The translations under genes and the position numbers were made by a program. Below the pieces are notes generated by a model. That model searched no databases. It was not told the DNA's origin and saw only the letters and a list, made by a program, of their open reading frames with translations. Positions 32,228 through 46,951 of a DNA stretch of 64,000 bases are shown here, in pieces. Location: the NCBI RefSeq assembly GCF_024298765.1, contig NZ_CP101210.1; one strand, written 5' to 3'. The stretch is from Escherichia coli (lineage in GTDB: Bacteria; Pseudomonadota; Gammaproteobacteria; Enterobacterales; Enterobacteriaceae). How positions within the stretch are numbered: position 1 is the first letter of the stretch; the number at the start of each line of letters is the position of its first letter.

Positions 32228-33823
32228 TTAATGAGCCGCTTCAGGCAGGACAAAACCCATCGCCGCATCGATAAATAATCTTTCGTCCATCAGTTTGAGT
32301 TCTGGCGAAATCACTGGGGTGAAATCCATTTTGTCGAGAATATCTTTTTGTAAATCGACGCCAGGAGCGATTTCGATTAAATGCAGGCCGTCTTCTTTCA
32401 GCGTGAATACGGCGCGCTCAGTGATATAACGAACATCCAGCCCTCGCTCGAGCGCGATTTTTCCGCTAAAAGTAATTTCTGGTAGTTCCCGAATAAATTT
32501 CTTCACCCGTCCTTCCTGGACGATATTTAATTTGCCGTCGGTAATTTCTGTTTTTAAACTGCCCGCAGTTAATGTGCCGCAGAAAACGATTTTCTTCGAA
32601 GTGGCACTGATATCAATAAATCCACCGGTGCCCATGATTTTACCATTGAATTTATGCACGCCGACGTTACCGTGCTGGTCGACTTCAGCAAAACTCAAAT
32701 AACAAACATCCAGACCACCACCGTGATAAAAATCAAACTGGGACGTCATATCCAGAATGGCGCGGGTATTCACGTTCGCGCCAAAGGCGATCCCCTGTGA
32801 AGTAATACCGCCAATCGGACCTGTTTCTACCGTCAGAATAAAGTCATCAGCACAACCTTCTTCCCGGGCGACCAGGCCAATGCCGTCAGCAATACCGACG
32901 CCGACATTCCCCACTGCGCCTTTGCGCATTTCGAATAATGCACGCCGTGCAACTAATTTACGTTGGTTTAGGGGCAGGCTAAGTTTGGTGCTGTCATCAA
33001 GGGTGAAGTCACCAGAAATAAAGCGGTTAACCGGCGCTCCGCCATACAGTTGGGTTTGATCCGGATCGACCACCACAATATCCACCAGATAACCCGGAAT
33101 ACGGACAGATTTAGGATGCAGCGTGGCTTTCTTAACCATTTTCTGCACCTGCATCATCACAATACCGCCGTTATTGTGCACCGCCTGAGCAATAACCAAT
33201 GCGTCGAGATACATCACCTCATCTTCAAAAGTGGCGTAGCCTTCGCTGTCGCAGGTGGTAGCGCGAATGAAGGCGATATCTGGCGCTATCGCTTTGTAAT
33301 AGAGATATTCTTGGTTATCAAACTCGACCAGTTTAATCAGGTCTTCTTTAGTGACTTCATTCAGTTTGCCGCCTTGCTGGCGTGGATCGACAAATGTTCC
33401 GATGCCAATATCACTAATAATACCAGGCTGGTGGGCTGCGGCGGCGCGTAAGGTTTGTGTAAGTACACCTTGTGGATAGTTATAAGCAATAATTTTATTT
33501 TGTTCTGCGAGATCAGAAATACGCGGCGATTGTCCCCAGTGACCGCATAATGCCCATTTCACCAGGCCTTCTTGCGCCAGCGGACTAATACCACGGTCGG
33601 CGCGATCGCCAAGCCCTGTTGGACTAATAATCGATAAATTACGTGGTGTTTGAGTCTGTTTATATTTATCAGCAAGAGCAGTAATTAACGTGGTGGCTTC
33701 CAGAATACCGCCGCCAGCGCCTAACACACAAAGTGTTGCTTCGTCGGGAATATAATTCACCGCTTCCTGTGCCGACAGGACCGGCACTCGTCCATTAATG
33801 CGAGGTGGTTTTACAGGTTTCAT
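32228..33823 (-). CDS. ydiF: Acyl-CoA:acetate CoA-transferase YdiF (531 aa)
   Basis: 531-aa ORF; family I CoA-transferase fused alpha/beta; matches YdiF. Confidence 0.9.
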   Translation of the reverse strand: MKPVKPPRINGRVPVLSAQEAVNYIPDEATLCVLGAGGGILEATTLITALADKYKQTQTPRNLSIISPTGLGDRADRGISPLAQEGLVKWALCGHWGQSPRISDLAEQNKIIAYNYPQGVLTQTLRAAAAHQPGIISDIGIGTFVDPRQQGGKLNEVTKEDLIKLVEFDNQEYLYYKAIAPDIAFIRATTCDSEGYATFEDEVMYLDALVIAQAVHNNGGIVMMQVQKMVKKATLHPKSVRIPGYLVDIVVVDPDQTQLYGGAPVNRFISGDFTLDDSTKLSLPLNQRKLVARRALFEMRKGAVGNVGVGIADGIGLVAREEGCADDFILTVETGPIGGITSQGIAFGANVNTRAILDMTSQFDFYHGGGLDVCYLSFAEVDQHGNVGVHKFNGKIMGTGGFIDISATSKKIVFCGTLTAGSLKTEITDGKLNIVQEGRVKKFIRELPEITFSGKIALERGLDVRYITERAVFTLKEDGLHLIEIAPGVDLQKDILDKMDFTPVISPELKLMDERLFIDAAMGFVLPEAAH

Positions 33824-33968
33824 TGTTAATTCCTGATTCAGGTGTGATTTTCCCTACGCCAGATGGAGAATTAGCGCACAGAGACTCACAAAATATTTTT
33901 ATTAAATACGGTTAAATATATTTTTTTTAGTTCGGCGGGGGAGGATATTCCCGCCGAAATATTATTGC

Positions 33969-34727
33969 TTATGCCTGATGTAAAATAGTTAATACTGTGC
34001 GCAAATCATTTACCGAGATTTGCCCTGGTGCAGAGGCTTTTTTTACCGCACCAAAAGTTGCCGCCGAGCCAAATACTTCACCAGCCAGACGAGAAATTAC
34101 GCCAGTTTTTGCCATCGACATCGTGATGATTGGACGATCGGCATACTGCTCCTGCATCTCCAGGGTCGCGGCAAGCAACGTCAGCACATCGCTGGTACTT
34201 TGCGGCATCAGCGCAATCTTAGGAATATCGGCGTCGAAGGATTGCATTTTGCGCAGACGGGCAATGATTTCTTCGGCTTCCGGCGTTTTATGGAAGTCAT
34301 GGTTGGACATGACAACTTTCACATCATGCGCGTGGGCGTAGGCGACGGTTTCTTTAACCTGATCATCGCCGGTAAATAACTCCAGATCGATCATATCAAC
34401 CAGGCCGCTGTCGATGGCTGCACGATTGAGTGCAATATAAGCCTCGGTGGAAATCGCCTGCTCGCCGCCTTCTTTGGCACTGCGGAAGGTAAACAGCAGC
34501 GGTTTTTCTGGCATGGTTTCACGGAGAATTTTTGCTGCCGCTATGACAGACTCCACATTGGAGAGATCGGCATAGTGGTCCACACGCCATTCCAGAATAT
34601 CAAAGTCCGCTTCACGATAGGCGAGAGCTTCGGATTTCACGCTGGCGATATCTTTCGCCATCAGCGAGACGATGATTTTAGGTGCGCCCGTACCAATGAC
34701 GAGATCTTTTACAGTTACGGTTTTCAT
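33969..34727 (-). CDS. aroD: 3-dehydroquinate dehydratase, type I (252 aa)
   Basis: [52 protein letters not shown]... matches AroD. Confidence 0.95.
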
Positions 34728-35635: not shown

Positions 35636-36907
35636 TTAACCTCTATGCTTAATTGTGTTTAACCGGGTGCTAAATTTATGCTCGCCAAACCGCACATCAT
35701 TTTCAGGAATAATGAAAACGCGATAATAGCGGATAAAAACAATAATTGCGGTAATCAGGGCCAGCAGCGCGAAAGTAAAATCGAGAGCGATGATATATTG
35801 CAGGCCGATGTTCGACAGATAACCGGTAATCAGCGGAATAACAAAGTTAGCCAGTCCACCCATCATCATATAAATACTGGTGACTTTGGCTTTGCTTTTG
35901 GGGAAAAACTCTGACATGACCGAAACGCCGAGCTGTAAAATGCCGCCAGCTGCTGAGAAACCGATAACAAAGGCTCCGGCATTACACACCAGTGGAGAAG
36001 GGTACAGGTAGATAATGGCTGCTGTTATTGTTGCCAGTGCAGAGTTAAATACATTAGCCCAGATGGGCCGGACCATTTTTTTCAGTAGTGCGGCAAAAAT
36101 AAAGACACAGACCAACGAGCCCATACTGTAATAAGAGATGGTTTTTAATGCTTCAGCTTCTGACATACCAGCAAAAGCCATCGCATATTTGGGCATCCAC
36201 ACCACAATCACATAAAAGGTCGCGAATGCGGCTACACCGAACAGTACCGATGAAACACCTTCCAGCCAGACTAACGGTTTGCTGTTCATTTGCGGTAATT
36301 CATTAGCTACGCTGGCGTCCACCAACTGGCTGGGGAATTTGCTTTTCAACAGCATCAGCGTGATCAGTACAAACAGAATACCCGGAATAATCAGCCCATA
36401 GCCGTACCAGATGTTATTGAGCAACATATAGCTCACCAGCATTGGGTAGAACATTTGCCCGAATGACACCATCGCTTTAACCAGTATGACCGCCGAACCA
36501 GTGGCTTTCGGAAAGCATTCCATGAGCGCGGGGTAGCCACCCGTATCCAGCGCTGAATTAGCGATACCTACGCACACTGCCAGACAGTAGGCGAGAGTTA
36601 AATTCGGGCAAGCAGGAATACCAAAGAAGAATAGCAGATACATTATTACTGCCATTAATATCACCGCCCGACGACCAAACTTATCGGAGATCACACCGAA
36701 GAATAAAATACTGATCAATCGCCCCAAACCGATACCGGAAATTAAATAGGCAATGCCCGCGTTGTCAGTGGAAAACTTTTCTGCCAAAGATGTCATGTTT
36801 TGGGCAAGCGTAATAACACTAATGCCGTGCAGGAAATAGCTGAAGTAAATACAAAGAACAGCCAGGATAAATGGCGTGCTGAAAGCCTTATTTTGAGACA
36901 TTTTCAC
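35636..36907 (-). CDS. ydiN: MFS transporter YdiN
   Basis: 12-TM-like hydrophobic profile with MFS motif ([19 protein letters not shown]); start codon ambiguous within the first few residues. Confidence 0.85.
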
Positions 36908-37127
36908 AGCACCTTGCTGAAAGATAATTTCGTTACCGTACGTATTGTTCTCCGACGGTTTACATAATTACTATACTGAAGATGATTTTCCCTGGGTACA
37001 TGGCATAAAGTTTATGTTTCCAGGAATATTGCATGTCATAGTTTGTTTTTGATCGCGATTTTCCTTAGTTAGCGCAGAAAGAGTTATTTATCCGTAAGAT
37101 CTTGCATGACCTGAAAAGAATATTGCA

Positions 37128-38342
37128 TTACCCACCCGGAGCGACATTTTCCTTTAGCGAGTGATGCCGCGTTTCTTTGCGGCTGCGTAAGCCGATAAAC
37201 AGCGCCAGTAAAAAGCCGATGGCAGCGATGGCGGTATCGAACCACATAATATCGGCAATACTTCTTTGGGACAGATGAGCCGTAATCAACGGAATAGTAA
37301 AGGTCGCAATACTGCCCGCACTGTAATAGATCCCTGTAGCTTTACCTTTAGCGTAGGGGAAACGTTCAGCCATTAATGTCAGGCCAATTTGCACAACACC
37401 TCCAGCAGAGGTAAAACCAATGACAAAAGCAAATATTATCACCACATAAAATGTGGGATGCAGGCAGACGGTAAACAGAGCAATAAATGAGATAAAGGTG
37501 TACAGCATCAGTAATGTTGTTGGGCGAACGGTATTACGAATGAGTGGAGCGGTAATAAATACACAAAGCAGCGAACCCACGGTGTAGATACTGAGTAGTT
37601 TGATCGACATAGTGTATGACATGCCAGCAACAAATTGTCCGTATTGTGCCAGCCACTGGCTAACCAGATAAAACGTTGCCATTGAGATATAGCCATATAG
37701 GGAATAACTGGCTAAATCGATAATTGAACAGCGATGTTCCGTAGAGCTGGTGGTTTTCTTTATGACAGGTAAGCGACGACCCGGATGGGGTGGGAACGTA
37801 CAACGGCATAAAAACAGAGCGTTAATAAACATAATGCCTGCGGCAATCATAAAGGACCAACCGAACCACAGTTCAGCCCACACTAACAGGCTAATTATTA
37901 GCGGTAATAAAAATTGTCCGCTGGAAACAAATGCTTTAATTAAAATATTGGCTGTCCCAGGTGAGCGTGGAAAAGCTTCCATCAAACTGGGATAGGTGCC
38001 TGCATCGAGAAAACTGTTTGCCATTCCCGCCAGAAAGCCAAAAACATAAGCGATAATGATGTTATTGGTGTGCAGGATGCCAAAAAAGAAGGCCATATAG
38101 CAGCACATCCCGAGCATGATAAAAGGGCGGCGACCAAAGCGATCGGATAATAATCCTGCAAAAAGCAAGACACTTAATCGACCAATGCCCAGTGATGAGA
38201 TAACTATCGAGACGCCCGCGGCATTAGTCTGCCAAAGCGTCTCCAGCGAGGCCATATTCAGGCTCATCAAAATGACGCCCATACCATGCACCAGGTAATT
38301 AAAATACAACCCCAGTGCGGTAGGGTAATAGGGATTTTTCAT
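37128..38342 (-). CDS. ydiM: MFS transporter YdiM (404 aa)
   Basis: Paralogous to the adjacent ydiN; MFS motif GRLSVLLFAGLLSDRFGRR. Confidence 0.85.
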   Translation of the reverse strand: MKNPYYPTALGLYFNYLVHGMGVILMSLNMASLETLWQTNAAGVSIVISSLGIGRLSVLLFAGLLSDRFGRRPFIMLGMCCYMAFFFGILHTNNIIIAYVFGFLAGMANSFLDAGTYPSLMEAFPRSPGTANILIKAFVSSGQFLLPLIISLLVWAELWFGWSFMIAAGIMFINALFLCRCTFPPHPGRRLPVIKKTTSSTEHRCSIIDLASYSLYGYISMATFYLVSQWLAQYGQFVAGMSYTMSIKLLSIYTVGSLLCVFITAPLIRNTVRPTTLLMLYTFISFIALFTVCLHPTFYVVIIFAFVIGFTSAGGVVQIGLTLMAERFPYAKGKATGIYYSAGSIATFTIPLITAHLSQRSIADIMWFDTAIAAIGFLLALFIGLRSRKETRHHSLKENVAPGG

Positions 38343-38441
38343 AGGTTCTACTTAGCAAAGGTGCTTTAAAAAGTGTAGCGATGTTGTGTCAGTATCCGTT
38401 CATTATTGTTGTAACAAAGACAATTCCTTTCTGTGGAGAAA

Positions 38442-38798
38442 TTAACAAAGCCGCTCCAGATCGTGTGCATATAATTCAGCGGCTACCGATTGATAGATCT
38501 TCCAGTCAATAAAATTGCCATCAGGGTAGACTTGTTGAAACGCGGTTAAGTCGGGGAAAAAACGCATGGTGTTGTTGCCGATGCGGTTATTTATTTTCTC
38601 TATGATGGCATGAAGATGTTTTTTTCTTTGCTGACGCATAGCCAACAGTTGCTCGACTACACGATCAGGAATGGCGTATTTGCCATTTTCCCATTGACGC
38701 CAGCTTTCACTGTCACCGGTCTGGGCAATCCAGGTCGCGCATTCATCAATAGTCATGGCAAAAATATGGCGGAGTGCCTGGAGTTCATAAGCGTTCAT
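38442..38798 (-). CDS. ydiL: Uncharacterized protein YdiL (118 aa)
   Basis: MNAYELQALRHIFAMTIDECATWIAQ...; start set at the internal ATG (38798). Confidence 0.78.
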   Translation of the reverse strand: MNAYELQALRHIFAMTIDECATWIAQTGDSESWRQWENGKYAIPDRVVEQLLAMRQQRKKHLHAIIEKINNRIGNNTMRFFPDLTAFQQVYPDGNFIDWKIYQSVAAELYAHDLERLC

Positions 38799-38936
38799 CG
38801 TGTAATGGCTGCATGAAATAAACAATAAAATATAAATAACATTATCAGCCTGCTGACGGCTTGAAGAGAGTCACAGTATCTTGTGCAACATTATTGGAAA
38901 GCGTGAGGGGCGAGGTAGCGAAGCGGAAAAATGTTA

Positions 38937-39043
38937 AAAAAAAGCCCATCGTGGGAGATGGGCAAAGACTACACACAGCAATTCGTTGTTTCACTCAGGG
39001 GATTTCCATGCTTATAAATCAATATGTTGATTTATAACCGTGA
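38937..39043 (-). ncRNA. rprA: RprA small RNA (RpoS translational activator)
   Basis: Minus-strand reads ACGGUUAUAAAUCAACAUAUUGAUUUAUAAGCAUGGAAAUCCCCUGAGUGAAACAACGAAUUGCUGUGUGUAGUCUUUGCCCAUCUCCCACGAUGGGCUUUUUUUU, which matches RprA as I recall it, including the terminal hairpin and U-tract; lies between ydiL and ydiK. Confidence 0.88.
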
Positions 39044-39226
39044 GCTAATAGTAGGCATACGGACTTTTTGCGTCGATCAGATTCGTCTCATTAGTTTAAA
39101 AACTGTAAAGAATTTGCGACAGGTACTACCAGCTGAATGGCGGTAAGCAGGAAAATATGGGGAAGAGCAAGCAAATATCAATTAGCAGGGGTTAACAATC
39201 AGGCGGCAGAGCCGCCTGATGAGAAA

Positions 39227-40339
39227 TTACTTATTCGGTTTCTCGATTTCGCCAAGTTCTTCGAGAATTTCTTCCGGTTGGTCCGTCGGCGGCGGGACTT
39301 CTTCCACCCACGCGGCAAACAGACGCCAGGAAACGGCTAACAGAACCGGACCAATAAACAGACCGATCATCCCGAAAGCAATCAAACCACCAATAACGCC
39401 AGAGAGGATCAGGATCAGCGGTAAATCGGCACCCATGCGAATTAACATTGGGCGGATGACGTTATCCAGCGTGCCAACCACACCGCTCCACACTAACAAT
39501 ACCGTTCCCCAGGTGGTATCGCCGGTCCAGTAGAGCCAGATAATCGCCGGAATCAGTACCGGCAATGGGCCAAGCTGGACAAGGCAGGAGAGGATCATTA
39601 ACACCGTGAGCAACGTTGCATAAGGTACGCCGGATACGGCGAGGCCGATACCGCCAAGCACAGCCTGTACTAACGCCGTCACCACCACACCCAGCGCCAC
39701 CGCGCGGATAGCCTGTGCCGCCAGCAGTACGGCGGCATCTCCGCGAACGCCTGCCAGACGGGTTGCAAAATGGCGAATGCCTTGTGCCACCTGTTCACCG
39801 CGCCAGTACAGCAGGGCGCTGAAGAGAAGCATCAGCGCACAATGCACCATAAAGCGCCCGATATGCGCCGCCTGCCCAACGAACCAGGTGGTGGTGGTGC
39901 CAATATAAGGACGGACTTTCGCCATGATCGCCGTCCCCCCCATATCCAGCAAATTGTGCCAGCCTGCATATAGCTTCGCGCCAATCACCGGAATGGTATT
40001 AAGCCACGCCAGATCGGGTAACGTCATGTCACCACTGGAAATGGCTTTAATTAGCGGGCCGCTGCCGTCGACGATACTGTTAACCAGCAAAGCAATAGGG
40101 ATGATAAACACCATCACTAATAACAGCGTCATCACCAGAACGGCGAGAGAGCGGCGACCAAACATGATCTTTTGCAAACGTAACAATACCGGCCAGGTGG
40201 CGATAACCACTGTACCGGCCCATGCAAAGCCGAGAATAAAGGGTTGTACAATCCACAGACATGCCACAATCATGATGGCTAAAAACAGCACCGAAAGCAG
40301 AATTTGTGCGACATCCCTGGGCTGACGAACATTTACCAT
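39227..40339 (-). CDS. ydiK: AI-2E/UPF0118-family membrane transporter YdiK (370 aa)
   Basis: Polytopic membrane protein; matches YdiK. Confidence 0.88.
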   Translation of the reverse strand: MVNVRQPRDVAQILLSVLFLAIMIVACLWIVQPFILGFAWAGTVVIATWPVLLRLQKIMFGRRSLAVLVMTLLLVMVFIIPIALLVNSIVDGSGPLIKAISSGDMTLPDLAWLNTIPVIGAKLYAGWHNLLDMGGTAIMAKVRPYIGTTTTWFVGQAAHIGRFMVHCALMLLFSALLYWRGEQVAQGIRHFATRLAGVRGDAAVLLAAQAIRAVALGVVVTALVQAVLGGIGLAVSGVPYATLLTVLMILSCLVQLGPLPVLIPAIIWLYWTGDTTWGTVLLVWSGVVGTLDNVIRPMLIRMGADLPLILILSGVIGGLIAFGMIGLFIGPVLLAVSWRLFAAWVEEVPPPTDQPEEILEELGEIEKPNK

Positions 40340-40727
40340 AACTACTTTTCACCTTTTTTGTGCGTCAAATCGTCGACGCGACGTGAACACGCGAAACTCA
40401 CCTGCATAATGATGAGCAATTTCAGCGGTTTTTAACAGGCCGATTCTGCCCTTAATTCTGATGGGCGTGTTAGAAAAAAATGTGGTACAACAACTCAGGC
40501 AACACGCAAACGATTTACTCGTCGTATTTCAAGTTGCATATGCTGCGGCTACGTTCGTTCACCCCAGTTACTTACTGTTGTAAGCTCCTGGAGTTCACTC
40601 GCTTGCCGCCTTCCTGCAACACGAAATCCATAGAGTAAACAAACATCACCTTTCAGTGCGCTATTGCAGCCGCCTGAAAGAACAGTGTATCGACCTACAT
40701 CACAGACCGCAGGAAAGGGTCAATATA

Positions 40728-43700
40728 ATGATTCCACAGATTTCCCAGGCACCCGGCGTCGTTCAACTGGTGCTTAATTTTTTGCAAGAGCTGGAGCAAC
40801 AAGGTTTTACCGGCGATACGGCGACAAGTTATGCCGATCGTCTGACAATGTCGACCGACAACAGTATTTACCAACTTCTCCCCGATGCGGTGGTATTTCC
40901 GCGTTCAACCGCAGATGTGGCGCTTATAGCCCGTCTTGCCGCGCAGGAACGCTATTCATCGCTGATCTTTACCCCCCGCGGCGGCGGCACCGGCACTAAC
41001 GGTCAGGCGCTCAACCAGGGGATTATTGTTGATATGTCCCGCCATATGAACCGCATCATCGAAATTAACCCTGAAGAGGGCTGGGTGCGCGTTGAGGCCG
41101 GGGTGATAAAAGATCAACTCAATCAGTACCTGAAACCGTTCGGCTACTTTTTTGCGCCGGAACTTTCGACCAGCAACCGGGCAACGCTCGGTGGGATGAT
41201 CAATACCGATGCATCCGGTCAGGGATCGCTGGTCTATGGCAAAACGTCAGATCACGTACTTGGCGTACGCGCGGTGTTGTTGGGGGGCGATATTCTCGAT
41301 ACGCAACCTTTACCCGTCGAACTGGCGGAAACGCTGGGTAAATCCAATACCACAATCGGGCGAATTTATAACACGGTTTATCAACGTTGCCGTCAGCAAC
41401 GCCAGTTAATCATCGACAACTTCCCCAAGCTTAACCGCTTTCTTACCGGTTACGATCTGCGTCATGTCTTTAACGATGAGATGACCGAGTTCGACCTGAC
41501 GCGCATTCTGACGGGTTCAGAAGGGACGCTGGCCTTTATTACCGAAGCGCGACTGGATATTACGCGCTTGCCTAAAGTGCGCCGTCTGGTGAACGTCAAA
41601 TATGACTCTTTTGACTCCGCACTGCGTAACGCGCCGTTTATGGTTGAGGCGCGGGCGCTTTCGGTAGAGACGGTGGACTCAAAAGTGCTGAATCTGGCGC
41701 GGGAAGATATTGTCTGGCATTCCGTCAGCGAGTTGATTACCGATGTGCCAGACAAAGAGATGCTCGGGCTGAACATTGTGGAATTTGCTGGTGATGATGA
41801 GACGCTGATTGATGAGCGAGTAAATGCACTCTGTGCGCGGCTGGATGAACTTATCGCCAGTCAGCAAGCAGGTGTGATCGGCTGGCAGGTATGCAGTGAG
41901 CTGGCAGGTGTTGAGCGTATTTATGCGATGCGCAAAAAAGCTGTCGGCCTGCTTGGCAATGCCAAAGGTGCCGCTAAGCCAATTCCGTTTGCTGAGGATA
42001 CCTGCGTACCGCCGGAACATCTGGCCGATTATATTGCTGAATTTCGCGCGCTGCTCGACAGCCACGGCTTAAGCTACGGTATGTTTGGTCACGTCGATGC
42101 AGGTGTCTTGCACGTCCGTCCGGCACTGGATATGTGCGATCCGCAACAAGAGATTTTGATGAAGCAAATCTCTGATGATGTAGTGGCGCTTACCGCGAAA
42201 TACGGTGGTTTGTTGTGGGGCGAACACGGCAAAGGTTTTCGTGCCGAATACAGCCCGGCGTTTTTCGGTGAGGAACTTTTTGCAGAACTGCGTAAAGTGA
42301 AAGCGGCATTTGACCCGCATAACCGACTCAACCCAGGGAAGATTTGCCCGCCAGAAGGTCTCGATGCACCGATGATGAAAGTGGACGCGGTGAAGCGCGG
42401 TACATTCGACCGGCAGATCCCCATTGCGGTACGCCAGCAGTGGCGCGGTGCGATGGAGTGTAACGGTAACGGTTTATGCTTCAACTTTGATGCCCGCAGT
42501 CCGATGTGCCCGTCGATGAAGATTACCCAGAACCGGATTCATTCACCGAAAGGACGCGCAACGCTGGTGCGTGAGTGGCTGCGTTTGTTGGCAGATCGCG
42601 GCGTTGACCCACTCAAACTGGAACAAGAACTGCCTGAATCCGGCGTCAGTTTGCGGACGTTAATTGCCCGCACGCGCAATAGCTGGCATGCGAATAAAGG
42701 CGAATATGACTTCTCACACGAAGTCAAAGAGGCGATGTCGGGCTGTCTGGCCTGTAAAGCGTGTTCGACCCAGTGCCCCATCAAAATTGATGTGCCGGAG
42801 TTTCGCTCTCGTTTTCTGCAGCTCTATCACACCCGTTATTTACGCCCGCTTCGCGACCACCTCGTTGCTACGGTCGAGAGCTACGCACCGCTGATGGCAC
42901 GCGCGCCGAAAACCTTTAACTTCTTCATTAACCAGCCGCTGGTGCGCAAACTCTCGGAAAAACATATCGGCATGGTTGATTTGCCACTGCTGTCAGTCCC
43001 CTCGCTACAACAACAAATGGTGGGGCATCGCTCGGCGAATATGACGCTGGAACAGCTTGAAGCTCTCAATGCAGAGCAGAAAGCGCGCACGGTGTTGGTG
43101 GTGCAAGACCCCTTTACCAGCTATTACGATGCGCAAGTGGTGGCGGATTTTGTCCGTCTGGTCGAAAAATTAGGTTTCCAGCCTGTGCTACTGCCATTTT
43201 CGCCAAATGGCAAAGCCCAGCATATCAAAGGCTTTCTTAATCGTTTTGCGAAGACGGCGAAAAAGACGGCGGATTTCCTCAACCGTGTGGCGAAGCTGGG
43301 GATGCCAATGGTGGGCGTCGATCCGGCGCTGGTACTTTGTTATCGCGATGAATATAAACTGGCTCTGGGCGAGGAGCGTGGCGAGTTTAACGTCTTACTG
43401 GCGAATGAATGGCTGGCAAGCGCACTTGACTCACAGCCAGTGGCTACAGTCAGCGGTGAATCATGGTATTTCTTTGGTCACTGTACCGAAGTTACCGCTT
43501 TGCCGGGCGCGCCAGCACAATGGGCTGCGATATTTGCCCGTTTTGGCGCGAAACTGGAAAATGTCAGCGTGGGGTGCTGCGGCATGGCAGGGACTTACGG
43601 ACATGAAGCGAAAAACCATAAAAATTCGCTCGGGATCTATGAGTTATCCTGGCATCAGGCGATGCAGCGACTGCCGCGTAATCGCTGTCTGGCGACCGGA

Positions 43701-43784
43701 TATTCCTGCCGTAGCCAGGTAAAACGGGTCGAAGGCACGGGGGTACGCCATCCTGTGCAGGCTTTACTGGAGATTATTAAATGA
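40728..43784 (+). CDS. ydiJ: FAD-linked oxidoreductase YdiJ with C-terminal Fe-S/CCG domains (1018 aa)
   Basis: MIPQISQAPGVVQLVLNFLQELEQQGFTGD...; FAD-binding PCMH-type domain, Cys clusters (CLACKACSTQC); start at internal ATG 40728. Confidence 0.9.
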   Translation: MIPQISQAPGVVQLVLNFLQELEQQGFTGDTATSYADRLTMSTDNSIYQLLPDAVVFPRSTADVALIARLAAQERYSSLIFTPRGGGTGTNGQALNQGIIVDMSRHMNRIIEINPEEGWVRVEAGVIKDQLNQYLKPFGYFFAPELSTSNRATLGGMINTDASGQGSLVYGKTSDHVLGVRAVLLGGDILDTQPLPVELAETLGKSNTTIGRIYNTVYQRCRQQRQLIIDNFPKLNRFLTGYDLRHVFNDEMTEFDLTRILTGSEGTLAFITEARLDITRLPKVRRLVNVKYDSFDSALRNAPFMVEARALSVETVDSKVLNLAREDIVWHSVSELITDVPDKEMLGLNIVEFAGDDETLIDERVNALCARLDELIASQQAGVIGWQVCSELAGVERIYAMRKKAVGLLGNAKGAAKPIPFAEDTCVPPEHLADYIAEFRALLDSHGLSYGMFGHVDAGVLHVRPALDMCDPQQEILMKQISDDVVALTAKYGGLLWGEHGKGFRAEYSPAFFGEELFAELRKVKAAFDPHNRLNPGKICPPEGLDAPMMKVDAVKRGTFDRQIPIAVRQQWRGAMECNGNGLCFNFDARSPMCPSMKITQNRIHSPKGRATLVREWLRLLADRGVDPLKLEQELPESGVSLRTLIARTRNSWHANKGEYDFSHEVKEAMSGCLACKACSTQCPIKIDVPEFRSRFLQLYHTRYLRPLRDHLVATVESYAPLMARAPKTFNFFINQPLVRKLSEKHIGMVDLPLLSVPSLQQQMVGHRSANMTLEQLEALNAEQKARTVLVVQDPFTSYYDAQVVADFVRLVEKLGFQPVLLPFSPNGKAQHIKGFLNRFAKTAKKTADFLNRVAKLGMPMVGVDPALVLCYRDEYKLALGEERGEFNVLLANEWLASALDSQPVATVSGESWYFFGHCTEVTALPGAPAQWAAIFARFGAKLENVSVGCCGMAGTYGHEAKNHKNSLGIYELSWHQAMQRLPRNRCLATGYSCRSQVKRVEGTGVRHPVQALLEIIK

Positions 43785-44191
43785 TATGGAAACGAAAAAT
43801 CACCCTGGAAGCACTGAATGCCATGGGTGAAGGAAACATGGTGGGGTTGCTGGATATTCGCTTTGAACATATTGGTGATGACACCCTTGAAGCGACAATG
43901 CCAGTAGACTCGCGGACAAAGCAGCCTTTCGGGTTGCTGCATGGAGGGGCATCCGTGGTACTGGCCGAAAGTATCGGTTCCGTTGCCGGTTATTTATGTA
44001 CCGAAGGTGAGCAAAAGGTGGTTGGTCTGGAAATCAATGCTAACCACGTCCGCTCGGCACGAGAAGGGCGGGTGCGCGGCGTATGCAAACCGTTGCATCT
44101 CGGTTCGCGTCACCAGGTCTGGCAGATTGAAATCTTCGATGAGAAAGGGCGTTTGTGCTGTTCGTCACGATTAACGACCGCCATTTTGTGA
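43781..44191 (+). CDS. menI: 1,4-dihydroxy-2-naphthoyl-CoA hydrolase (hotdog thioesterase), 136 aa
   Basis: MIWKRKITLEALNAMGEGNMVGLLDIRFEHIGDDTLEATMPVDSRTKQPFGLLHGGASVVLAESIGS... matches MenI/YdiI; ATGA overlap with the ydiJ stop. Confidence 0.92.
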   Translation: MIWKRKITLEALNAMGEGNMVGLLDIRFEHIGDDTLEATMPVDSRTKQPFGLLHGGASVVLAESIGSVAGYLCTEGEQKVVGLEINANHVRSAREGRVRGVCKPLHLGSRHQVWQIEIFDEKGRLCCSSRLTTAIL

Positions 44192-44290
44192 CGTTGTCAC
44201 CAGAAAAGTGTGACGCATATTGCTTTTGGTCATTATCTGCACAGTAAACGGTGGTATACTGTGCAGGTCTTGTCTAAAAGCGAGGATGCT

Positions 44291-44479
44291 ATGTCTACTC
44301 AACTTGATCCCACCCAGCTGGCCATTGAATTTTTACGCCGTGACCAGAGCAATCTTTCACCTGCCCAATATCTCAAACGTCTGAAACAACTAGAACTTGA
44401 ATTTGCTGACCTGCTTACTCTCTCTTCTGCTGAATTAAAAGAAGAAATCTACTTTGCCTGGCGTCTGGGCGTGCATTGA
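44291..44479 (+). CDS. ydiH: Small uncharacterized protein YdiH (62 aa)
   Basis: MSTQLDPTQLAIEFLRRDQSNLSPAQYLKRLKQLELEFADLLTLSSAELKEEIYFAWRLGVH; start taken at the internal ATG. Confidence 0.7.
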   Translation: MSTQLDPTQLAIEFLRRDQSNLSPAQYLKRLKQLELEFADLLTLSSAELKEEIYFAWRLGVH

Positions 44480-44702
44480 TCCTGACTTAATGCCGCAATT
44501 TTGCCAAATCGACCTGGATTAACCTCCGTCCAGGTTCGATGACCTTCTTAATACTGCTTATCTATCCGCCTGATATTGTTCAAAAATAATACTAATCGCA
44601 GTTTGTGTTAAAACGGCGGGTTAGCTTTATGAGATTATTCTTATCGCCCCTTCAAGAGCTAAGCCACTGAGAGTGCCGGAGATAAGCGCCGGATGGGGTA
44701 GA

Positions 44703-44750
44703 AACCCTTAAGCCTGTGTCGCACAGACTTAAGGGTTTTCTTATTTCTGA
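44703..44750 (+). terminator. Strong Rho-independent terminator; possibly the 3' end of the RydB sRNA
   Basis: Long hairpin AACCCTTAAGcctgtgtcgcacagaCTTAAGGGTT followed by TTCTTATTTCT; the ydiH-sufA intergenic region is where RydB maps in E. coli, but I cannot recall the RydB sequence well enough to confirm. Confidence 0.4.
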
Positions 44751-44832
44751 ACGCTGCACTTTTTTACCTATCTCTTAAATAGTCATTTTCAATACAACTT
44801 TTTCTTTTTCATCACAGCCTTAATGCTCCTTA

Positions 44833-44848
44833 GATAATAATCATTATC
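44833..44848. promoter_or_regulatory. Fur-box-like palindrome in the suf promoter region (distal)
   Basis: GATAATAATCATTATC, a near-perfect match to the GATAATGATAATCATTATC Fur consensus. Confidence 0.5.
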
Positions 44849-44968
44849 TAACAATGAGATACCTAATTCTTAGCGTGCCTGTTAACCCACACATCAGGGT
44901 CTATGCTTATTAAAAGCAGGAAAAAAGCATGTTTTACGGTAAAGCCCCTGCGTTTGCTGGGTTGAACT

Positions 44969-44981
44969 GATAATCATTATC
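44969..44981. promoter_or_regulatory. Fur box in the suf promoter (proximal)
   Basis: GATAATCATTATC about 50 nt upstream of the sufA ATG; the suf operon is known to be Fur-repressed. Confidence 0.6.
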
Positions 44982-45027
44982 ACTAACATGCTGTTTTACG
45001 CTGAAAGCGATGAAGTGAGGTAAATCG

Positions 45028-45396
45028 ATGGACATGCATTCAGGAACCTTTAATCCACAGGATTTCGCCTGGCAGGGCTTAACGCTGACACCCGCAGCCG
45101 CTGTCCACATCCGCGAGCTGGTGGCAAAGCAGCCGGGTATGGTCGGCGTGCGCTTAGGCGTGAAGCAAACGGGCTGCGCGGGCTTTGGCTATGTGCTCGA
45201 CAGTGTTAGCGAGCCGGACAAAGACGATCTGCTGTTTGAACACGACGGCGCGAAGCTGTTTGTCCCGCTGCAAGCGATGCCGTTTATTGATGGCACGGAA
45301 GTCGATTTCGTTCGTGAAGGACTTAATCAGATATTCAAATTTCACAACCCTAAAGCCCAGAATGAATGTGGCTGTGGCGAAAGCTTTGGGGTATAG
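45028..45396 (+). CDS. sufA: Fe-S cluster A-type carrier SufA (122 aa)
   Basis: C-terminal CGCGESF motif; matches SufA. Confidence 0.95.
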
Positions 45397-45404
45397 GCGG
45401 TACT

Positions 45405-46190
45405 ATGTCTCGTAATACTGAAGCAACTGACGATGTCAAAACCTGGACCGGCGGCCCGCTGAATTATAAAGAAGGATTCTTCACCCAGTTAGCCACCGAT
45501 GAGCTGGCAAAGGGGATAAACGAAGAGGTGGTGCGCGCAATTTCGGCGAAGCGTAATGAGCCGGAGTGGATGCTGGAGTTTCGTCTCAACGCCTATCACG
45601 CATGGCTGGAGATGGAAGAACCGCACTGGTTGAAAGCGCACTACGACAAGCTGAATTATCAGGATTACAGCTACTACTCGGCACCATCGTGCGGTAATTG
45701 TGACGACAACTGCGCGTCTGAACCCGGCGCGGTGCAGCAAACTGGCGCGAACGCCTTTTTAAGTAAAGAGGTGGAGGCGGCGTTTGAGCAGTTGGGCGTT
45801 CCCGTGCGGGAAGGCAAAGAGGTGGCAGTGGATGCCATTTTCGACTCTGTTTCGGTTGCCACTACTTATCGCGAAAAACTGGCGGAGCAGGGAATTATTT
45901 TTTGTTCCTTTGGCGAGGCGATCCACGATCACCCGGAACTGGTGCGTAAATATCTCGGCACCGTGGTGCCGGAGAATGACAACTTCTTTGCCGCACTTAA
46001 TGCGGCGGTAGCCTCTGACGGTACGTTTATTTATGTGCCTAAAGGCGTGCGTTGCCCGATGGAACTTTCCACCTATTTTCGCATTAACGCGGAAAAAACC
46101 GGGCAGTTTGAGCGCACCATTCTGGTGGCCGACGAAGACAGCTATGTCAGCTACATTGAAGGCTGTTCCGCTCCGGTGCGTGACAGCTAT
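45405..46190 (+). pseudogene. sufB: sufB 5' fragment (codons 1 to about 262 of about 495)
   Basis: N-terminal SufB sequence only; the C-terminal part that forms the SufBC2D scaffold is missing. Confidence 0.8.
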
Positions 46191-46640
46191 CATAATGGCG
46201 AATACCTCATTCATGGCACCAGTGCGCCGGACAGCGTCGGTTTGCGCGTCAGTTCGGGCTGTATTCGCATGAATGCACCGGATATTAAAGCTTTATTCTC
46301 CAGCGTGCGGACGGGAACACCGGTGAAAGTGATCAACGAACCGGTGAAATATTCCGTGGAACCTAACGGGATGCGTTATGTTGAAGTACATCGACCACTA
46401 TCGGCAGAAGAACAGCAGAACGTTCAGACAATGCCGTACACGCTGCCAGCAGGCTTTACGCAATTTAAAGACAATAAGGCTGTAGATCAGAAGTTAGTCG
46501 ATAAAGCGTTGTATCGTCGGGCAGGGTATCCGGTTGCGGTGAGCAGTGGAGCAACTCCCGCAGCCAGCAATGCGCCTTCAGTAGAGTCAGCGCAGAATGG
46601 GGAACCAGAGCAAGGGAATGTGTTACGCGCGACGCAGTAG
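45405..46640 (+). CDS. In-frame chimeric ORF: SufB N-terminal ~262 aa fused to the C-terminal ~149 aa of an L,D-transpeptidase (LdtE/YnhG-like YkuD domain); deletion remnant
   Basis: Translation follows SufB ([26 protein letters not shown]...[13 protein letters not shown]) then switches to an L,D-transpeptidase catalytic motif ([36 protein letters not shown]) and runs to a stop 60 nt before the convergent lpp; no sufC/D/S/E ORFs exist between sufA and lpp. Confidence 0.85.
46191..46640 (+). pseudogene. ldtE: ldtE (ynhG) 3' fragment: YkuD catalytic domain without signal peptide or LysM domain
   Basis: L,D-transpeptidase motif HGT...SSGCIRM with a C-terminal tail; sits immediately before lpp, where ldtE lies in E. 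coli. Confidence 0.75.
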
Positions 46641-46655
46641 CGGTAAATAGCAGGC

Positions 46656-46686
46656 AAAAAAATGGCGCACAATGTGCGCCATTTTT
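46656..46686. terminator. Bidirectional Rho-independent terminator (lpp terminator; also ends the suf/ldtE transcript)
   Basis: AAAAAAA-TGGCGCAC-aa-TGTGCGCCA-TTTTT. Confidence 0.8.

Positions 46687-46702: not shown

Positions 46703-46951
<249 letters not shown>

Follow-up and report, generated by a model that had tools for sequence, protein, structure and literature searches.

A 5,053-bp deletion that probably fused sufB in frame to ldtE in one strain of Escherichia coli

RefSeq annotation places the E. coli suf genes in the order sufA-B-C-D-S-E-ldtE, followed by the convergent gene lpp, in agreement with the arrangement that the original prediction had taken as canonical. In the 64-kb stretch of E. 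coli DNA analysed here (hereafter, the window), only one ORF separates the sufA stop codon from lpp. This raises the questions of what the ORF encodes, whether the segment between its two parts was truly lost from the chromosome, how the ends were joined, and what the loss would mean for the cell. The features of the locus are listed below.

44969 to 44987, minus strand: Fur-box-like site in the kept suf promoter region, 41-59 nt before the start codon of sufA
45028 to 45396, plus strand: sufA, intact, 122 aa (from the ORF list; 0 differences from strains 104 and 13P477T)
45405 to 46640, plus strand: chimeric ORF SufB(1-262)-His-LdtE(187-334), 411 aa, with the SufB-type ATG at 45405 and a stop codon ending at 46640
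45405 to 46192, plus strand: sufB-derived arm, codons 1-262 and the first two bases of codon 263, with a single mismatch to the reference
46192 to 46193, unstranded: deletion junction, 5,053 bp missing, from arm-by-arm comparison with relatives
46193 to 46640, plus strand: ldtE-derived arm, the third base of codon 186, codons 187-334 and the stop codon, identical to ldtE of strain 104
46658 to 46686, unstranded: bidirectional terminator hairpin common to ldtE and lpp, intact, a 13-bp perfect stem between A and T runs
46703 to 46939, minus strand: lpp, 78 aa, intact and convergent (from the ORF list; right arm with 0 differences from strain 104)

The present order of the locus is P_suf-sufA-(sufB'::'ldtE)-terminator-lpp. 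The counterpart of its sufA in strains 104 and 13P477T is annotated as SufA (WP_000367171.1). The Fur-box-like site has three mismatches to GATAATGATAATCATTATC and is the sole match in the window, where 0.01 would be expected by chance. It lies in an upstream region whose sequence is the same in the relatives, and no difference from them was found across positions 36912-45972, so sufA and its upstream region are unchanged and the suf promoter region has been retained, as predicted. The hairpin downstream of the chimeric ORF has a folding energy of -20.7 kcal/mol (z = -3.9), and a terminator scan placed terminator-like sites on both strands there. Two small RNA genes to the left are intact and untouched by the deletion, namely rydB (44646-44706, plus strand, 81.6 bits), which closely precedes the suf promoter, and RprA (38934-39041, minus strand, 118.5 bits), further left. 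Near the left end of the window, synteny with strains 104 and 13P477T places espL1, an annotated type III secretion effector gene, at about 4418-6316 on the minus strand, between yniD and thrS.

The junction was placed by walking base by base against strain 104 (L001), rightwards from sufA and leftwards from lpp. The left arm matched strain 104 through position 46192 and the right arm from position 46193, and the reference bases absent between them number exactly 5,053 relative to the closest complete genomes, which gives a precise length to the deletion of about 5 kb claimed originally. In the wild type, the left breakpoint falls between ...GACAGCTATCA and GTTACACG, and the right breakpoint between ...CGCGCATGG and TAATGGCG. 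Nothing is shared or inserted where the two arms meet (0 nt of microhomology, 0 inserted bases); the microhomology that had been anticipated at about 46185-46195 is therefore absent. No k-mer of at least 7 nt, direct or inverted, was shared within 60 nt on either side of both wild-type breakpoints, no IS element was found between 46192 and 46193, and the window contains no Ns or foreign bases.

The lost segment comprises SufB residues 263-495, all of sufC, sufD, sufS and sufE, the stretch between sufE and ldtE, and LdtE residues 1-186. The ldtE promoter would sit in that intergenic stretch and would hence be gone as well. When the deleted suf proteins were searched against the 64-kb window by tblastn for a second copy, the only hit, at 30% identity, was to the paralogous ABC-ATPase BtuD. 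The coding frames of sufB and ldtE, 5,284 nt apart, are offset by 1. Because the deletion length likewise leaves a remainder of 1 on division by 3, the reading frame stays open across the junction, an outcome expected for one in three chance pairs of breakpoints.

The composition of the encoded protein agrees closely with the original prediction of about 262 SufB codons joined in frame to the LdtE C-terminus. Compared with strain 104 SufB (495 aa), residues 1-262 of the chimera are wild type save for G190E; residue 263 is a His specified by a hybrid codon, whose first two bases (CA) belong to sufB codon 263 and whose T belongs to ldtE codon 186; and residues 264-411 are identical to residues 187-334 of strain 104 LdtE (334 aa). 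Matches to PDB sequences follow the same division, with SufB of 5awf aligning over residues 1-263 and the L,D-transpeptidase 4lzh over chimera residues 265-379.

Pfam profiles of the chimera and its parents indicated that both catalytic domains are truncated. SufBD_N was detected at chimera residues 156-217, followed by SUFBD_core (PF01458) at residues 225-265, covering only profile positions 1-40 of 232. Wild-type SufB matches that profile over its full length (1-232, residues 225-466), and the chimera keeps the first 38 core residues. On the LdtE side, YkuD (PF03734) is represented only by profile positions 93-146 of 146, i.e., the last third (54/146), whereas Ldt_C is complete. Wild-type LdtE has a LysM domain at residues 42-85, YkuD at 97-232 and Ldt_C at 236-302, as well as a signal peptide that we read from the sequence at residues 1-23. 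With residues 1-186 deleted, the chimera is without the export signal and LysM, on which location in the periplasm and binding to peptidoglycan depend, and comparison with the wild-type parents thus bears out the claimed removal of sufC, sufD, sufS, sufE and both N-terminal parts of LdtE. The catalytic His...Cys motif (HGT...SxGCIRM) is retained, with LdtE Cys209 becoming chimera Cys286. The chimera has cysteines at positions 96, 99, 103, 167, 217, 254 and 286, which include the sulfur-acceptor Cys254. The cluster-assembly residues Cys405 and Glu434 are absent, as SufB sequence stops at residue 262; Cys254, Cys405 and Glu434 are the key residues reported for SufB (PMC5571166).

None of 5,426 complete E. 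coli genomes spans the sufB-ldtE junction, the exact chimeric protein was not found among about 15 billion proteins, and the junction 35-mer was not found in metagenome contigs. In 5,417 of the 5,426 genomes the deleted segment is found uninterrupted; for a dnaC-opgB control region the count is 5,420 of 5,426. These counts do not support an enrichment of suf loss among complete genomes. One or two of the 5,426 have no match even to essential core regions (thrS-pheST, matched in 5,425/5,426, and dnaC-opgB); these may be plasmid-only or mislabelled assemblies.

The flanks of the window are near-identical to those of about 77 genomes that form a clade and come from poultry or avian, pig, dog and human sources. 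Over the 17.8 kb of the right arm, strain 104 and several other genomes have the same sequence, and in the 46 kb to the left only four positions set the window apart from strain 104 and 13P477T alike. The suf operon is intact in the clade-mates examined, with one clade-mate, CS18F, carrying sufD::IS421. Given flanks near-identical to a clade with an intact operon, the deletion would be recent and private to this strain. The four private changes are as follows.

1219: synonymous change in yniA, relative to strains 104 and 13P477T
33921: intergenic T7 to T8, between ydiF (32228-33823) and aroD (33969-34727)
36911: T-to-A, 10 nt upstream of the start of ydiN (35636-36901, minus strand)
45973, plus strand: G-to-A, giving SufB G190E in the sufB remnant

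The additional T at 33921, in a tract that is T7 in all close relatives, could be a true slippage mutation or a homopolymer sequencing error. The change at 36911 replaces AAGGAG by AAGGTG in the Shine-Dalgarno sequence of ydiN and, judged from this motif, might lower ydiN translation. A search with the exact 61-mer showed the G190E allele in 0 of the 5,225 complete genomes that match this stretch. Constraint on the remnant may have been relaxed once the deletion had occurred, but chance would also account for the change, as one of four private changes would fall in a 1.2-kb ORF with a probability of about 7%; the change was therefore given no weight as evidence.

The window allele can be compared with other natural lesions of the suf operon. 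E. coli BL21(DE3) likewise carries a spontaneous in-frame suf deletion that yields a fusion protein from the suf promoter and leaves SUF inactive; this protein builds up in the cell without activity, and a delta-isc allele cannot be introduced into the strain (bioRxiv 10.1101/811059). That deletion removes 854 bp and fuses sufA to sufB, whereas in the window strain sufA is intact, 5,053 bp are lost, sufC through sufE are gone and the deletion reaches ldtE, so the two fusions are distinct, as the original prediction had stated. A radiation-evolution paper in which suf is mentioned deals with SufD variants and up-regulation rather than deletions, and was set aside.

With the chimera as a query, five further in-frame suf fusions (L006 and L008-L011) were found in public assemblies. 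The first of these (L006, protein P0001, Logan ERR2932817, positions 8001-9230) is an independent in-frame fusion of SufB(1-173) to LdtE(~97-334). It shares with the window both parent genes, the position of the fusion between sufA and lpp, the size of the deletion (about 5.05 kb) and the open frame; it differs in joining sufB codon 173 to ldtE codon ~97 across an imperfect 11-nt microhomology, in having K-12-like alleles, and in keeping the whole YkuD domain. The L006 fusion is without a signal peptide. The other four (protein entries P0009, P0024, P0011 and P0002) are listed below.

L008: SufB259::SufS53, 2,874 bp deleted, 6-nt microhomology
L009: SufB247::SufS279, 3,582 bp deleted, 0-1 nt microhomology
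L010: SufB370::SufS75, 2,601 bp deleted, 0 nt microhomology
L011: SufB413::SufC31, 348 bp deleted, 0 nt microhomology

Like the window allele, these are in-frame deletions that start inside sufB, and three of the four are blunt; unlike it, they remove less DNA (348-3,582 bp), stop short of the end of the operon and leave sufE and ldtE in place. Each of the five junctions is internal to a contig, and the contigs come from independent de Bruijn assemblies.

Two lesions in complete genomes involve IS elements. In E. coli H32 (NZ_CM184319.1, L004 4288-5372), IS1A stands in place of the segment from the suf promoter through sufS. H32 is, like the window strain, a natural isolate with a complete genome that is without most of the suf operon; it differs in having IS1A at the junction, in having lost the promoter and sufA, and in retaining a 5'-truncated sufE and an intact ldtE. 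This truncated sufE is still annotated as SufE by RefSeq, and an IS3-family element interrupts ydhY nearby. In the chicken isolate CS18F (NZ_CP074576.1, L025 3196-4308), a frameshifted copy of the IS4-like element IS421 lies in sufD. CS18F belongs to the same clade as the window strain (100% identity over the segment) and its suf operon was disrupted independently, by insertion rather than deletion, with all genes present and ldtE untouched. The catalogue thus comprises seven junction-mapped lesions and one IS insertion, with four of the six IS-free junctions blunt. The window allele joins this small known class of natural suf lesions and represents no new system or mechanism.

We consider it likely that the 5,053-bp sufB-ldtE deletion is a genuine, recent chromosomal event private to this strain. 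The strongest competing explanation is that the junction is an artefact of the record, i.e., a contig mis-join, a chimeric long read or a sequence edit, and that the suf-ldtE region of the strain is in fact intact or interrupted by an IS element. The uniqueness of the junction among complete genomes, proteins and metagenome contigs would fit such an error, as would its perfect bluntness and the T7-to-T8 homopolymer difference, which is of a kind typical of long-read errors. On the other hand, neither a repeat nor a shared k-mer of at least 7 nt is available at the breakpoints to collapse an assembly, and the sequence quality is high, given that Ns and foreign bases are absent, that the 64 kb contain a single indel and that the right arm agrees with strain 104 over all of its 17.8 kb. 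Bluntness itself is no mark of artefact, because equally blunt suf-internal deletions sit inside independent de Bruijn contigs from other samples. On this evidence we regard an artefact as improbable and a real deletion as the better account.

If the deletion is real, sufB codon 263 and ldtE codon 186 would have been joined without homology, by illegitimate joining after breakage, and neither replication slippage nor an IS element would be the origin. The 0-nt overlap at the breakpoints speaks against a microhomology-dependent deletion, whether by slippage or by RecBCD/LigA alternative end joining. In a published study, the native RecBCD/LigA end joining of E. coli used 1-9 nt of microhomology (1-3 nt in every event of that study), for which a 0-nt junction is atypical. 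The deletion would fit a type of illegitimate recombination known from E. coli that is independent of short homology and linked to DNA gyrase or topoisomerases.

A further question is whether selection favoured the loss of SUF and LdtE, or whether the chimera gained a function, rather than the deletion being an incidental and mildly deleterious lesion. A broader form of this idea holds that SUF loss, with or without LdtE, is recurrently selected in niches such as an iron-replete gut, poultry hosts or antimicrobial exposure, that sufB codons 247-263 are a hot spot of breakage, and that the chimera is active on its own. The several independent suf lesions, including a second in-frame SufB::LdtE fusion (L006) and one lesion in the same clade (CS18F), are in line with selection, and so are the three left breakpoints within sufB codons 247-263 and the private missense change in the sufB remnant. 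Against this, the segment is no less conserved than the dnaC-opgB control among complete genomes, the probability of a private change within the ORF by chance is small but appreciable (see above), and both catalytic domains of the chimera are truncated.

The clustering of breakpoints at sufB codons 247, 259 and 263 is also not significant (p estimated at about 0.08) given the search bias, as a search with the chimera finds in-frame fusions more readily when sufB is broken at about codon 235 or later. A hot spot had also been suggested by P0017, a Klebsiella-like SufB of 262 aa that ends at the junction codon, and this was rejected, as the entry reflects a nonsense codon or contig ends. In a Klebsiella-like contig (L012 7001-7789, Logan SRR32345410), sufB codon 263 is changed from CAG to TAG with the rest of the operon intact, and we judged its position at the junction codon of the window to be a coincidence. 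The other P0017 contigs simply stop at that codon, and an exact-sequence look-up selects such contigs. We therefore think it very improbable that the window allele was adaptive, and equally so that the broader form of the idea holds; an incidental lesion is the preferred reading.

That the deletion was produced by an IS element inserting in sufB or ldtE followed by an adjacent deletion, as in H32, has the least probability of all and is hardly credible here, for IS-associated suf lesions are known in E. coli (IS1A in H32, IS421 in the clade-mate CS18F) but adjacent deletions leave the IS at the junction, where in the window the arms abut without an extra base.

With regard to consequences, established knowledge of SUF, the back-up pathway for the assembly of iron-sulfur clusters, implies that it would be null in this strain, since the locus has lost SufB Cys405 and Glu434 together with the ATPase SufC, SufD, the desulfurase SufS, and SufE. 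A SUF-null cell would therefore depend on ISC alone. SUF serves under iron limitation and oxidative stress (PMC6006206); the strain should accordingly be sensitive to both and intolerant of isc loss. The chimera would be made from the suf promoter under the control of Fur, OxyR and IscR. It would stay in the cytoplasm because it has no signal peptide and is expected to be inactive because its two domains are truncated, and these predictions from the protein sequence make an inert cytoplasmic by-product most likely.

The strain would be null for LdtE as well. LdtE had been described as a stationary-phase enzyme that crosslinks Lpp; the stationary-phase part stands, in that LdtE is an RpoS-induced housekeeping enzyme working with LdtF, but Lpp is attached by LdtA, LdtB and LdtC, and LdtE, like LdtD, instead forms 3-3 mDAP-mDAP cross-links in peptidoglycan (PMC6428754). 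Single ldtE mutants grow normally and lyse upon LPS-export stress (PMC6428754).

If the deletion is real, the isolate is a natural ISC-only E. coli that is also without one of the two transpeptidases that form 3-3 cross-links. It would be a convenient strain for asking how far E. coli can do without SUF in natural settings, and it would be expected to suffer specifically from iron chelators, oxidants and any damage to ISC. Together with the other lesions catalogued here, it shows how E. coli sheds segments of an operon without homology.
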